DNA of 6,156 nt. It comes from a virus. A model generated the notes under the pieces. That model was not told the origin of the DNA. It saw only the letters and a program-made list of their open reading frames with translations, and searched no databases. Positions 3,118 to 6,156 of this stretch are shown here, in pieces. The first letter of the stretch is position 1. The number at the start of each line of letters is the position of its first letter. The stretch lies in the IMG/VR virus record IMGVR_UViG_3300022758_000079. One strand, written 5' to 3'. Both the position numbers and the translations under genes were made by a program.

Positions 3118-4257
3118 ATGGCAGATTTTCTAAGTTCAGGATGGGGAAACGGATTAGTATCTGGAGCCTTAGGTATGATAGGAGGAGCGATCTCTGATCG
3201 AAGAAACTATCGAAACCAAAAAAAGCTAATGGGATTGCAAAACGAATACAATCTGAACATGTTAGCAAAACAACAAGATTACGCCAAAGAAATGGCAGGA
3301 ATAAATCAAGGATACGCAATGGATATGGCTAATTGGTCACACAATGCGAACAAAGACATGTGGGATTATACCAATTACGAGAACCAAGTAGCACACCTTG
3401 AAGCAGCAGGACTAAATCCAGCTCTATTGTACGGACAAGGAGGCGGAGGAGGAGCAACAGCAGCAGGAGGCAACGCAATTGCAGGAAGCGGACAATCAGC
3501 AGGAGGAGCAAACACAAGTGCACCGCAAGCCATAAAGTCACAAATAATCGAAGGTGCGGGAATGGGAATACAGCTTGGCCTTATGAATGCCCAAAAACGC
3601 AATTTAGAGGCCGATGCAGCCAAAAAAGAAGCTGATGCAGCCAAAACAGCAGGAGTGGATACCGAACTCGCTAAAACAGCAGCAAAGCTCAACGAAGCAA
3701 GAATCGAAAATATCAATATGTCAACCGAAGAGATAGCAGCTAAGGCGAAAATGTGGGGAGATACCTCTACAATGCTATGGCAACAGGCACGAAAATATGC
3801 ATCAGAAGCTGACTACAACGAAAAAACGATGGATACAAGAATCGAAAAAGCAGGGTATGAGACAGTGGGAAGCCTATTAGAAAACTTGGAGACCATCGCA
3901 AGAACTCAATTTACAAAAGCACAAACAGACGCAATAGCAGAGAACATAGCAATAGCATGGTATAATGCAGGAACAAACAGAATGAATGCAACAACAGCAG
4001 CAGACCATGTAGCAAATGAACTCTTCAAAACAATGGGAGAGCTTGACATAAAACAAAAACAATTGCTGAAAGATTGGATATATCAAGGAGTGCATGCAGG
4101 AGTGGCGCTATTAGAAGGCGTAACAGATCTTGTAAAAATAAAAGCACTAATAAAAGCAGCGTCAAAAGGCATAAAAGAAGTGGTGAACAAACGCAGAACA
4201 AACAACGGAAAAGAAGGATGGTCTGAAGAATGGATTAAGGAAGTGTTTAGAGAGTAA
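3118..4257 (+). CDS. VP2: VP2 minor capsid / DNA pilot protein, 379 aa. It has a Gly/Ala-rich tract (GQGGGGGATAAGGNAIAGSGQSAGGAN) and an Ala/Lys/Glu-rich helical region.
   Basis: A glycine-rich low-complexity region is typical of microvirus VP2/H-like pilot proteins. The ORF lies between VP1 and Rep. Its stop TAA overlaps the VP4 ATG as TAATG. There is no Shine-Dalgarno sequence; the leader is A-rich. Confidence 0.75.
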   Translation: MADFLSSGWGNGLVSGALGMIGGAISDRRNYRNQKKLMGLQNEYNLNMLAKQQDYAKEMAGINQGYAMDMANWSHNANKDMWDYTNYENQVAHLEAAGLNPALLYGQGGGGGATAAGGNAIAGSGQSAGGANTSAPQAIKSQIIEGAGMGIQLGLMNAQKRNLEADAAKKEADAAKTAGVDTELAKTAAKLNEARIENINMSTEEIAAKAKMWGDTSTMLWQQARKYASEADYNEKTMDTRIEKAGYETVGSLLENLETIARTQFTKAQTDAIAENIAIAWYNAGTNRMNATTAADHVANELFKTMGELDIKQKQLLKDWIYQGVHAGVALLEGVTDLVKIKALIKAASKGIKEVVNKRRTNNGKEGWSEEWIKEVFRE

Positions 4258-5171
4258 TGTGTTTATATCCAAAACTGATCAAAAACAAGCGGTATTACAA
4301 AACAAAAAAAAACAAAGGTGTAATACCGCCTTGTCCAGACGAAAGATTAAGATACGTAACAGCAGCTTGCGGAAAATGTTTTGAATGCATGAAACAAAAG
4401 GGGAGAGCCTGGCAAGTACGATTATCCGAAGAAATCAGGCAAGATCCAAAAGCAATATTTGTAACATTGACAATAAGCGATGAATCATGGAGAAAAATCA
4501 AAAACGCATACATACAATTATCAGACGAAGATTGTATAAAAAAGATGGTAAGATTATTCTTAGAACGAGTGCGAAAAAAAACAAAGAAATCACTAAAGCA
4601 CTGGCTTACAACGGAAAGAGGTGGAACAAATACGGAACGATACCACCTGCATGGACTTATCTGGGGAGAGAATGCAGAAACGTTGACAGGATCTTTATGG
4701 CAGTATGGTTTCGTATTTATAGGCACATTTGTAAACGAATGTACTGTAAATTACATCACAAAATATATCACAAAAACGGACGAAAAGCACAAGGACTTTA
4801 TACCAACTATCCTTTGTAGCGCAGGAATAGGGGCAGGTTACCTTAATCGAGCGGATTCGGAATTGAACCGATACCGTGAATCTAAAACAAATGAAACTTA
4901 TCGATTAAGGAACGGTGTGAAATTGAACCTACCTATATATTACAGAAATAAATTATACACCGATGAAGAAAGAGAGCAACTATTCCTCGAAAAAATCAAA
5001 AAAGGAAAGGTCTGGATAATGGGGCAGGAATGTGACATTCGCGATGAAGCTACGTACTTCGCAATGCTGCGTGACGCGCAAAAAAGGGCTCGGCAACTAC
5101 ACGGAGATGATCCGATAAAATGGGACGAAGCGAAGTATCTTAGAAGGCTCGCTCGGCAACGTTCTCGATAA
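4257..5171 (+). CDS. VP4: VP4 replication initiation protein (HUH rolling-circle endonuclease, gene A-like), 304 aa.
   Basis: Motif 1 FVTLT lies at about nt 4458-4472. Motif 2, the HUH motif HLHGL, lies at about nt 4644-4658. Motif 3, with the dual catalytic tyrosines YITKYITK, lies at about nt 4752-4775. There is an N-terminal CPDE...CGKCFEC zinc-finger-like cluster. This matches the known microvirus/φX174 A-protein superfamily architecture. Confidence 0.9.
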   Translation: MCLYPKLIKNKRYYKTKKNKGVIPPCPDERLRYVTAACGKCFECMKQKGRAWQVRLSEEIRQDPKAIFVTLTISDESWRKIKNAYIQLSDEDCIKKMVRLFLERVRKKTKKSLKHWLTTERGGTNTERYHLHGLIWGENAETLTGSLWQYGFVFIGTFVNECTVNYITKYITKTDEKHKDFIPTILCSAGIGAGYLNRADSELNRYRESKTNETYRLRNGVKLNLPIYYRNKLYTDEEREQLFLEKIKKGKVWIMGQECDIRDEATYFAMLRDAQKRARQLHGDDPIKWDEAKYLRRLARQRSR

Positions 5172-5184
5172 GAGGGCGTCCGGG

Positions 5185-5247
5185 CGGGCTTTCCGTTTCA
5201 AGTCCTCACTCCTTCGTCGCTCCGGGCTTTCCTCTTCAATCCCTGAC
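5185..5247. repeat. Two imperfect 25-bp direct repeats: CGGGCTTTCCGTTTCAAGTCCTCAC at 5185-5209 and CGGGCTTTCCTCTTCAATCCCTGAC at 5223-5247. They match at 20 of 25 positions and are spaced 38 bp apart.
   Basis: I aligned them by hand. They have an iteron-like arrangement immediately downstream of the Rep gene. Confidence 0.6.
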
Positions 5248-5294
5248 GCGCTGCGCTATGAGCCTCCGGCGGGTCGGTCTCGCCCGACAGGCGA

Positions 5295-5312
5295 CGAGCG
5301 TGCCGACGCTCG
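5295..5312. other. Perfect hairpin: a 7-bp stem CGAGCGT/ACGCTCG with a 4-nt GCCG loop.
   Basis: The reverse complement of CGAGCGT is ACGCTCG, which I checked. The hairpin lies inside the GC-rich island. Confidence 0.55.
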
Positions 5313-5500
5313 ACCCGGGAAAGTAACATTATCGGCTACCGCCTGATTTTTAACATAGTTAATGGTTTAGGTTAAACTGACCGGGAGCACCCCCCTAAAG
5401 GGGACCCCCCCGAGATTGGACCGTCAAAAGGATATGAAGGGGCGTGGAATAGGAGTGCCTATCGAGATGTTAAAGTAATATAAAAATGTGGTAAACCGGT

Positions 5501-5529
5501 TTGCATATATGAAAAAGAATGCCGATATT
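5501..5529 (+). promoter_or_regulatory. Candidate sigma70-like promoter for the small-ORF cluster: -35 TTGCAT at 5501-5506, a 17-nt spacer, and -10 GATATT at 5524-5529.
   Basis: This is a pattern match in the AT-rich leader upstream of the strong RBS at 5564-5569. The -10 matches the consensus at 4 of 6 positions. Confidence 0.3.
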
Positions 5530-5574
5530 TGCAATAAAATCAAAAAAATAAACAAACTAAAAACGGAGGTAAAA

Positions 5575-5739
5575 ATGAGAAAACTGCATTTATATGATAT
5601 AAAACTTAGAGACGCAATGTCCAATGAAGAACGAACAATAACAATAGAGGCAACCAGCATGATAATTGCAATAATAAAAACAGAGGATTTAAAAAACACT
5701 TACGAATACACATTAGAAATTAAAATGGTAAAATTATGA
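5575..5739 (+). CDS. Hypothetical small protein, 55 aa from ATG 5575. The ORF is open in frame back to ATG 5488, which would give 83 aa.
   Basis: A strong RBS, GGAGGT, sits 5 nt upstream of ATG 5575. The upstream ATG 5488 has no RBS. The stop TGA 5737-5739 overlaps the next gene's ATG 5736 as ATGA. Confidence 0.5.
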   Translation: MRKLHLYDIKLRDAMSNEERTITIEATSMIIAIIKTEDLKNTYEYTLEIKMVKL

Positions 5740-5933
5740 AAAAGATTTGGAAATGGAAACTGACAATTACATTTGTCACAGGAATGAGTTTAGAAACAGA
5801 AGTAAAAGCAGAAAGTATTAAAAAGGCAATCGCATCAATAGAATACACTGCAAAAAAAATGAACGGTGAGATAACCAGTGTCCAGAAAGGAGAAGAATAT
5901 GAGGACAAAAATCAAGGATGTCAAAGTGATTGA
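5736..5933 (+). CDS. Hypothetical small protein, 65 aa, with a mildly hydrophobic N-terminus and an acidic C-terminus. It is translationally coupled to the upstream ORF by an ATGA overlap.
   Basis: The ORF is on the + strand and has the ATGA overlap. I recognise no family for it. Confidence 0.45.
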   Translation: MKKIWKWKLTITFVTGMSLETEVKAESIKKAIASIEYTAKKMNGEITSVQKGEEYEDKNQGCQSD

Positions 5934-6156
5934 CGGAGATAAAATGTTATATACTCTATACATGTATAACAACAGGATCTTTGAATTACAGATAAAAAGT
6001 TACAATACAGGATATTGTAGGCACTTGAAAAACAAGGAAGCAATAGTGGCATTCTTAGTAGATATACACACAAGGAAATATCTCGTATTCAAAGAGGCAG
6101 TTGAAAAAATCACATGGGAAGAGATAGACAATCTGGTAAACGAAAAAATCAAAGAA
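5899..6156 (+). CDS. Hypothetical 99-aa protein that spans the circular junction. It runs off the window end and continues as 2..169, ending at TGA 167-169. Its N-terminus reads MRTKIKDVKVIDGDKMLYTLYMYNNRIFELQIKS...
   Basis: The six-frame track omits it because there is no stop inside the window. I translated it by hand. A strong RBS, AAAGGAG, sits 6 nt upstream of ATG 5899. Frame continuity across the 6029-nt offset is verified. Confidence 0.55.
   Translation, partial: MRTKIKDVKVIDGDKMLYTLYMYNNRIFELQIKSYNTGYCRHLKNKEAIVAFLVDIHTRKYLVFKEAVEKITWEEIDNLVNEKIKE

Follow-up and report, generated by a model that had tools for sequence, protein, structure and literature searches.

The window analysed in this study, the whole 6,156-nucleotide (nt) stretch of IMG/VR virus record IMGVR_UViG_3300022758_000079, is a microvirus genome, circular and 6,029 nt long with terminally redundant ends of 127 nt (1-127 = 6030-6156), and every gene lies on its + strand. 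The gene for the rolling-circle replication initiator Rep is an open reading frame (ORF) at 4257-5171 (+ strand; Pfam REP_ORF2-G2P, E=5e-12), and a GC-rich island begins 1 nt past its stop codon. Comparison with relatives showed that this island is a mosaic of portable, GC-rich, hairpin-forming modules, consisting of module A (5174-5251, with the Rep stop codon 2 nt ahead of it), module B (5263-5321) and a part C, and that module A is a diverged, phage-borne copy of the Flavo-1 motif that scores below the Rfam threshold. Neither module is assigned a strand.

The nucleotide relatives of the window are gut and faecal microviruses, the close ones from human-gut metagenome assemblies; compared sequences and loci are referred to by L numbers. 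Alignment to these relatives placed the variable island at 5161/5172-5466. In whole-genome alignment, a genome of 99-99.8% identity (L014) has the entire island. The 88% identical L175 is alignable through Rep up to 5321 and next only from 5732, and the 80% identical L174 is alignable to 5160, then just over 5264-5299, and again from 5467. A BLAST search of phage records split the island, matching 5174-5250 to one unrelated microvirus (MG945641) and 5263-5321 to Dulem virus 263. A chimeric assembly is unlikely, given that L014 is near-identical and that separate contigs from other samples (L168/L175, L209, L210) carry homologous A and B modules. The island occupies a hypervariable spacer from the end of the Rep gene to the promoter of the next gene block.

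The observation made in the original prediction was partly confirmed, and its interpretation partly supported. A GC content of ~65-70% had been given for ~290 nt, but only the first ~150 nt reach it (5172-5321, 68.0%), whereas 5322-5460 has 49.6%; the whole of 5172-5460 has 59.2%, and the remainder of the genome 37.4%. Windows of 100 nt gave 61-67% GC over 5151-5350 and 47-51% over 5301-5500. The segment is indeed non-coding, with 3-7 stops per frame and a longest open stretch of 57 codons, and the small minus-strand ORFs at 5097-5201 and 5198-5329 are not preserved in L168, a relative with 93% Rep identity. No tRNA or tmRNA was found, and at E<=10 no Rfam family matched the window besides Flavo-1 and a spurious microRNA match. 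Non-coding DNA of this extent had been called rare in microviruses, but ~525 nt are found in the L010 family and ~575 nt in Dulem virus 263. The predicted structure is real insofar as conserved hairpins are recovered by comparison. The 306-nt island gave folding energies that do not surpass those of dinucleotide shuffles, whether it was taken as RNA or as DNA and whichever strand was folded (z -0.76 to +0.61), and the case for structure therefore rests on comparison and not on thermodynamics.

Module A as a diverged copy of Flavo-1

Two direct repeats of 25 nt with 80% identity, at 5185-5209 and 5223-5247 (both + strand), had been regarded as iteron-like. The repeats exist but are not iterons: they are the 5' and the 3' arm of a single rod-like hairpin, an imperfect palindrome, and they look alike because the internal loops of the rod are quasi-symmetric. 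Module A is laid out as a basal helix GCGTC/GACGC, a 5-nt bulge CGGGC, a helix GGG/CCC, the rod and a variable tip. The rod has two 3x3 internal loops with pyrimidines on one strand and purines on the other. In full, the proposed structure begins with the 5-bp closing helix and the CGGGC bulge; GGG/CCC and a C/T mismatch come next, followed by two units of 2 bp plus a 3x3 loop and by the distal stem.

The seed alignment of the Flavo-1 RNA motif (Rfam RF01705; Weinberg et al. 2010) is published (PMC2864571). Its Rfam model matched 5178-5261 over the full model length on the minus strand, the strand on which Rfam models the family, with 26.5 bits (E=0.023), and thus did not reach the gathering threshold of 42 bits. 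A covariance model was built from 46 bacterial copies only. It matched 5174-5251 of the window full-length with 75.3 bits (E=1.8e-14), L168 with 58.8 bits, and the Bacteroides plasmids p5482 and pBF9343 with 44 and 38 bits; there was no match in L167, L170, L171, L173 or Dulem virus 263. The 17-mer core GGGCGTCCGGGCGGGCT occurs in 57 IMG/VR contigs, each with ATCCCT(G/A)ACGC 35-70 nt downstream. A gapped form of the core was found in 106 bacterial genome stretches from five phyla, mostly Bacteroidota but also Alpha- and Gammaproteobacteria, Planctomycetes and Spirochaetes. Bacteroidota copies that share the core of the window are true Flavo-1 matches of 51-64 bits, found on the opposite strand to the GGGCG orientation. 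Homology to accepted Flavo-1 members was in this way established by a transitive chain, from the core in the window to these Bacteroidota copies and on to the 46-copy model.

The sequence itself agrees with this assignment. The interior of the seed alignment (GGAAAGCCCGCAGCCUGACGAAGGAAGUGCGAGGACUUG in Flavobacterium johnsoniae and F. psychrophilum) and the minus strand of the window (GGAAAGCCCGGAGCGACGAAGGAGUGAGGACUUG) are ~85% similar. The conserved Flavo-1 base GCGUNAGGGAU ... AGCCCG is present on the Rfam strand, reading GCGUCAGGGAUUGAAGAGGAAAGCCC...GGACUUGAAACGGAAAGCCCG on the minus strand of the window, and so are the variable tip and the rod with a 2-bp helix between two 3x3 internal loops, although one mismatch falls in the 2-bp helix. 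The window copy differs in its extended 5-bp closing helix and its CGGGC bulge, where many Flavo-1 copies have a mini-hairpin, and in that it resides in a microvirus. In such copies the mini-hairpin that replaces the bulge (e.g. ACCCCTTTAGGGGT, TCCCGTGGGA, CCTTTCAGG) yields a three-way junction; examples are L178-L183 (~60-130 nt upstream of the Rep ATG), L204 at 4145-4228 and L205 at 722-800. No paper found by literature search prints the core 14-mers. Because Flavo-1 has no assigned function, membership in the family yields no mechanism.

Covariation was measured on 80 distinct low-GC copies, in which the apical part was swapped for a linker, resulting in a gapless alignment. The proposed structure is paired in 85.9% of cells, compared with 73.5% in shuffles. 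The covariation score is 0.314 compared with 0.118 in shuffles, none of 500 of which reached 0.314, and at most 0.143 with slid partners; changes on both sides were seen in 12 of the 19 pairs. The basal helix covaries in a wider set as well (GCGTC/GACGC, GCTGTC/GACAG, GCCGTC/GACGG, GCGTT/AACGC). Among the pair types, 1223 are Watson-Crick, 82 G-U and 64 A-C, and the most variable basal pair occurs as AU (36), UA (25), CG (8) or GC (7) and never as G-U. The fold energies of the two strands differ by a mean of only 0.8 kcal/mol. Such nearly pure Watson-Crick pairing is more readily explained if selection acts on a DNA palindrome, or on both strands, than if it acts on a single RNA strand. In 62-83% of low-GC and 47-68% of high-GC copies, a conserved T-rich tract directly precedes the element on its 5' side.

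Two other structural classes were considered and rejected. A G-quadruplex does not agree with the many copies that have no fourth G-tract, and self-cleaving ribozymes (hammerhead, hepatitis delta virus-like, twister) were discarded on topology, judged by eye, and on the absence of Rfam matches.

Distribution and portability of the modules

Within the lineage of the window, module A is intact in L209 and L210, and L168 has a mutated core and a broken basal helix. L167, L208 and L211 are without module A and have a textbook terminator, AAAGCCCTGCGGGCTTTTT, at exactly that spot. The relatives with absent or degenerate module A have Rep identities of 76-93%. Of the relatives further removed, L170 and L171 have GC-rich islands that are unrelated, and L173 has none.

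Other microviruses carry the Flavo-1 copy elsewhere. It follows Rep on the coding strand in the window lineage and in the L033/L041/L169 lineage, and follows VP2 on the coding strand in MG945641. It occupies the non-coding strand in three others, 20-46 nt upstream of a gene that is Rep in the L010 family, VP2 in the L005/L015 family and a small structural gene in the L012 family. Three microvirus lineages thus have the coding strand and three the opposite one, at differing genome positions. The sole DNA common to L033 (4904-5033) and L012 (5010-5136) is a 130-nt cassette of 93% identity, which stands in opposite orientation relative to the genes and comprises an A/T-rich leader, the Flavo-1 copy and the next hairpin. 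In the L010 family, defined as 26 genomes with Rep at least 80% identical, 16 copies have the canonical form and six have a compensated closing helix (GCGTT/AACGC for GCGTC/GACGC) with a mini-hairpin in place of the bulge, while 3-4 of the 26 have internal deletions or a decayed 3' core.

Module B was found in nine sequences, namely the window, L167, L168, five gut-metagenome relatives and Dulem virus 263. It is present in every relative found with this Rep type, and it is inverted in the unrelated Dulem virus 263, where it is 90% identical and lies on the strand opposite that virus's genes. Hairpins X (5273-5277 with 5284-5288) and Y (5280-5284 with 5290-5294), which together span 5273-5294, overlap and are mutually exclusive, yet each is 100% paired in the nine sequences and each has its own compensatory double change. 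The overlap suggests alternative conformations or overlapping protein-binding inverted repeats. Hairpin Z (5295-5312), for which the prediction of a perfect hairpin was borne out, has a 7-bp stem (CGAGCGT/ACGCTCG) and a 4-nt loop, and covaries in relatives in four stem variants that all pair; pair 43:50 is UA or GC, and pair 44:49 is GC, UA or AU. A small hairpin with a UACC loop covaries too. Module B is accordingly a real structured unit, found in either orientation with respect to genes, and adds to module A a second hairpin unit that is likewise portable. A GGTCTC box downstream was rejected as a joiner of A and B, being present in only 17 of 154 copies and thus not general. A 20-mer match to module B in the 21-kb contig L003 was set aside as a chance match within GC-rich coding sequence.

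Both modules are therefore structured, portable, independent of orientation and dispensable. The absence, the decay and the mixed position and orientation of the Flavo-1 copies do not fit an origin, iterons or a packaging signal, but fit an accessory, exchangeable cassette.

In bacteria, all 64 classified low-GC loci are intergenic, with 11 copies between convergent, 15 between divergent and 38 between tandem genes, and each of the four possible gene arrangements is represented. Where a gene end faces the TTT-GGGCG side of the element in these loci, the median gap is 23 nt and 19 of 27 gaps are within 60 nt, a layout as in the window. F. psychrophilum (NC_009613.1) is named 96 times in the Flavo-1 seed file; 51 copies were read, several of them identical. 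By hand tally, and assuming the terminus near 1.8 Mb, the Rfam strand is co-oriented with replication in ~35 of the 51 (~69%). A strong replication-strand bias as in IS200/IS605 elements was rejected on this value, which is modest and akin to a gene-strand bias. A transcriptome study found Flavo-1 matches sense, antisense and outside transcribed regions (PMC9723704). The proposal that the island is captured host DNA holds in that the element is portable and module A is homologous to a Bacteroidota repeat; it is limited in that the exact core was found in no gut Bacteroidales chromosome among the 106 genome matches. In Mariniphaga, copies lie in tailed-phage prophages. One Mariniphaga locus (L152) has two Flavo-1 copies 2 kb apart (3899-3979 and 5867-5947), each followed by the same ~60-nt sequence. 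These copies are downstream of DnaB-like and primase-like genes, and an ORF for a group II intron reverse transcriptase is found 1.5 kb further.

Copies also recur in plasmids and conjugative elements. In at least 10 loci of Alpha- and Gammaproteobacteria (L084, L089, L093, L106, L118, L124, L126, L134, L135, L164), ardA lies 40-400 nt downstream of the element on the same strand (Pfam ArdA, E 1e-44 to 6e-7). Some of these loci have a parB-like gene further downstream, and their make-up is that of a conjugative leading region. No Rfam family was found for the proteobacterial form of the element. Such copies are present in 80 Bacteroidales plasmids, and the window copy is 74-77% identical to some of them. 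Plasmid pBF9343 of B. fragilis has a copy 340 nt ahead of an ArdC-like gene; in pMMCAT one copy is 270 nt upstream of a JAB/RadC-like gene and another is between convergent genes. An identity as the origin of transfer (oriT) of conjugative elements was rejected, because ardA reads away from the element whereas leading-region genes read towards oriT (reasoning from PMC11541004).

Part C, the flank and neighbouring features

Part C (5322-5466) is lineage-specific filler with 50% GC and cannot be aligned to L175 or L174. Within part C there are an inverted repeat rich in A and T (5349-5376) and a mini-hairpin, CCCCTAAAGGGG (5392-5403), which is free-standing in the window and also occurs inside the Flavo-1 variants L178-L183. 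A perfect or near-perfect hairpin had been predicted at 5390-5411; what exists there is only a mini-hairpin of 4-5 bp, CCCC(C)TAAAGGGG, in a segment that is not common to close relatives. At the place of part C, downstream of module B, L168 (3585-3640), L209, L210 and L212 have 2-3 tandem units of ~20 nt, GCTATGCAGCGTGGG(T/C)A(G/A)GG. A perfect 8-nt inverted repeat, TCTCGATA / TATCGAGA (5163-5170 and 5460-5467), brackets the island almost exactly; it is missing from relatives without module A and may be a coincidence.

The conserved flank (5467-5531, + strand) is 85% identical to L174 from 5467 on. The first conserved bases past the island, with which it starts, are ATGTTAAAGTAAT (5467-5480), and relatives (L167 at 2246-2266, L168 at 3674-3697) have a tandem ATGTTAAA(G/T)(T/A)AATGTTAAAG. 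The sequence ATGTTAAAT matches the terminal part of the XerD arm in E. coli dif. The flank at 5467-5480 may be a phage attachment site (attP) or the true origin region. A promoter-like box, GATATTTG (5524-5531), lies ~45 nt upstream of the ORF at 5575-5739, and relatives have TATATTTG at its position. The box resembles TAnnTTTG, the -7 promoter box of Bacteroidota, and in combination with the plasmid matches it points to a Bacteroidales host.

The major capsid protein is encoded at 611-2605 and the pilot protein at 3118-4257, both on the + strand. A perfect 14-bp palindrome, GTTTCACGTGAAAC (2608-2621), lies 3 nt past the stop codon of the capsid gene and is kept at the same place in L168/L175, L208, L209 and L210; the variant GTTTCACGTGGAAC occurs in another microvirus lineage (L030, L051). 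The palindrome, which is identical to the core of the bacterial parS consensus, could be a ParB-binding site or simply a hairpin.

Interpretation of the cassette

The favoured explanation, to which a probability of about one half is given, is that the island is an exchanged hairpin cassette of a REP-like kind, which provides stem-loops at the 3' end of the Rep transcript and is accessory, not an origin. REP (repetitive extragenic palindromic) sequences and the BIMEs (bacterial interspersed mosaic elements) of enterobacteria and pseudomonads are short GC-rich imperfect palindromes that are extragenic, multicopy and found in either orientation, often just past stop codons. They are clustered in mosaics with other motifs and act as mRNA 3' stabilisers and termination modulators. 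The Flavo-1 element is likewise extragenic, present in many copies and found in either orientation, with 2-3 copies on single plasmids. It has no sequence similarity to REP/BIME and no 5' tetranucleotide of the GTAG type, and its core, unlike that of REPs, is common across phyla and is found on phages and conjugative elements.

According to this explanation, the modules would move as short cassettes between co-resident mobile DNAs, by recombination or through a hairpin-specific enzyme, and would land in either orientation. Starting 2 nt past the Rep stop codon, the very stable stem-loops would form the 3'-end structure of the VP1-VP2-Rep transcript and might terminate transcription, block 3' exonucleases or provide insulation from the promoter downstream. 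A role at the 3' end is suggested because relatives without module A have AAAGCCCTGCGGGCTTTTT there and because bacterial gene ends lie close on the TTT-GGGCG side; the cassette would stand in for the terminator of those relatives. It would be accessory, neither an origin nor a set of iterons, and viability would not require it.

Several observations weigh against this explanation. The island resembles an intrinsic terminator in lying directly past the last gene of a transcription unit, but no T-run follows its stems, and a scan of 4900-5800 yielded 0 terminator-like sites (hairpin plus T-run). A pure terminator would be depleted between divergent genes, and the divergent intergenic copies are not depleted (15 of 64 low-GC loci). 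In the three antisense microvirus lineages the element is 20-46 nt upstream of a start codon and not just past a stop codon. The unpaired nucleotides (the CGGGC bulge, the C/T mismatch and the T-rich 5' flank) are conserved, which suggests a specific trans-acting partner that a simple stability hairpin does not need. The relatives with and without module A look like the products of segment replacement and not of clean insertion, and no transposase or other mobilising enzyme was identified. Finally, the seeds of the covariance model were gathered by an exact pattern taken from the window, and core conservation is in part an effect of this ascertainment.

A purely selfish repeat of the MITE (miniature inverted-repeat transposable element) or REP type, moved by a hairpin-recognising enzyme such as a Y1 HUH transposase (of the REP-associated tyrosine transposase, RAYT, or IS200/IS605 type) and without a phage function, is an unlikely explanation, albeit one with several observations on its side. 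Flavobacterium genomes hold many copies, some identical; the 93% identical cassette occurs in unrelated microviruses in opposite orientation; the T-rich tract 5' of the element resembles a target-site preference; and copies decay or vanish in close relatives. On the other hand, neighbour clustering showed no recurrent transposase beside the copies, although no genome-wide search was made, and the variants are replacements or internal deletions instead of precise insertions or excisions. The compensatory changes within L178-L183 show that the structure is selected inside phage genomes, and a compact 6-kb virus should shed useless DNA fast.

It is quite unlikely that the element is a signal in single-stranded DNA (ssDNA), folding on the entering strand and recruiting host RNA polymerase or primase in the manner of Frpo/ssi or of a complementary-strand origin, so that synthesis of the complementary strand or early transcription would begin there. 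The Frpo/ssi elements are single-strand promoters of plasmid leading regions, reportedly described by Masai and Arai in 1997. Complementary-strand origins such as G4 oric, the phiX174 primosome assembly site and M13 ori(-) are GC-rich hairpins in intergenic regions of ssDNA phages. The element is present in ssDNA phages, too, and its almost purely Watson-Crick covariation is what a DNA hairpin would be expected to give. It is also found upstream of ardA, ArdC-like and JAB/RadC-like genes in conjugative elements, where the transferred template strand would carry the Rfam orientation, like the packaged strand in three microvirus lineages. It resembles Frpo/ssi in being folded, in preceding anti-restriction genes of conjugative elements and in its DNA-like covariation, and leading-region genes are known to use ssDNA promoters (PMC11541004). 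However, Frpo is a hairpin of ~300 nt that rebuilds -35 and -10 boxes (Samuel et al. 2024, PMC11541004), whereas the Flavo-1 element is ~75 nt long, GC-rich and without such boxes. Scan and inspection revealed no -35/-10-like hexamers in the rod and no promoter-like site within 5172-5321, and the sole + strand promoter-like match in the island (5350-5378) lies in part C, outside any hairpin.

Polarity is a further difficulty for a signal on the entering strand or for minus-strand priming. Frpo/ssi has a polarity fixed on that strand; that of the Flavo-1 element is not fixed, as in the window and two other microvirus lineages it is the opposite orientation that the packaged strand carries. Most microviruses do not have the element, in close relatives it is deleted, and it occurs also in chromosomes and double-stranded DNA phages, that is in tailed-phage prophages, between housekeeping genes and in ordinary chromosomal intergenic regions. 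In F. psychrophilum its orientation tracks the replichore only weakly. The origins of G4, phiX174 and M13 are essential, fixed in polarity and conserved within their phage group, whereas the island is variable, dispensable and of both polarities. A broader form of the same idea, in which Flavo-1 and its cross-phylum relatives make up a superfamily of portable hairpins that act single-stranded and recruit a conserved host enzyme (primase, RNA polymerase or HUH nuclease), is similarly improbable. If true, the element would start complementary-strand synthesis or very early anti-restriction expression in microviruses and in the leading regions of plasmids and integrative and conjugative elements, where it would directly precede ardA, ardC and radC-like genes, and would be a GC-rich counterpart of Frpo, free of promoter boxes, for Bacteroidota and marine Proteobacteria.

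More doubtful is a structured non-coding RNA, either produced by the phage or with a cis effect on adjacent genes, as the Rfam class of Flavo-1 (Gene; sRNA, for small RNA) would have it. The strong covariation and the stems of variable length (table in Weinberg 2010, PMC2864571) agree with an RNA. On the Rfam strand, purines (GGA/GNA) predominate in the internal loops, where sheared G-A pairs could form, and this strand is sense in three microvirus lineages, 20-46 nt ahead of a start codon. There is, however, almost no strand signal, as G-U pairs (82) and A-C pairs (64) are similarly frequent, the most variable basal pair has zero G-U and the strands differ by 0.8 kcal/mol in fold energy. The orientation relative to genes and transcripts is mixed, and all genes of the window are on the strand opposite the Rfam one, for which no promoter was found.

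A recombination region of the attP or dif type, as debris of or substrate for Xer-type integration, is very unlikely. Sites of a dif-like type flank the proviruses of Bacteroidales microviruses (PMC3091885). From relative to relative the island is hypervariable, and module B has overlapping inverted repeats with 5-6 bp spacers. The start of the flank, ATGTTAAAG, which resembles the XerD arm of dif, was counted in favour as well, but the resemblance extends over 8 bases only. No provirus junction was found at the element, the motif being internal to the phage in L005, the sole contig with a host gene, and covarying hairpins are not a feature of dif sites. Hardly credible is the main idea of the original prediction, a Rep plus-strand origin with iterons or a packaging signal: the island adjoins the Rep gene and has repeated sequence and hairpins, but the repeats are arms of one hairpin, module A is absent (L167, L208, L211) or degenerate (L168) in relatives with 76-93% Rep identity and varies in position and orientation, Dulem virus 263 has module B in inverted orientation, part C is specific to the window, and the non-coding bases kept in all relatives, besides module B, lie only outside the island, from 5467.

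For the annotation of microviruses these results advise caution, in that GC-rich non-coding islands beside Rep are variable accessory cassettes and should not be labelled origins. Flavo-1 itself, described in 2010 in a single sentence, has since remained an orphan motif of no known function. The analysis shows that the element rides in gut ssDNA phages and is exchanged as ~130-nt cassettes between unrelated microviruses, that recognisable relatives exist in Proteobacteria, Planctomycetes and Spirochaetes, that its covariation is like that of a DNA hairpin, and that it lies repeatedly just upstream of conjugative-element genes for anti-restriction. The window does not represent a new kind of system; it ties an unexplained repeat family to ssDNA phages and anti-restriction loci and makes this family experimentally tractable.

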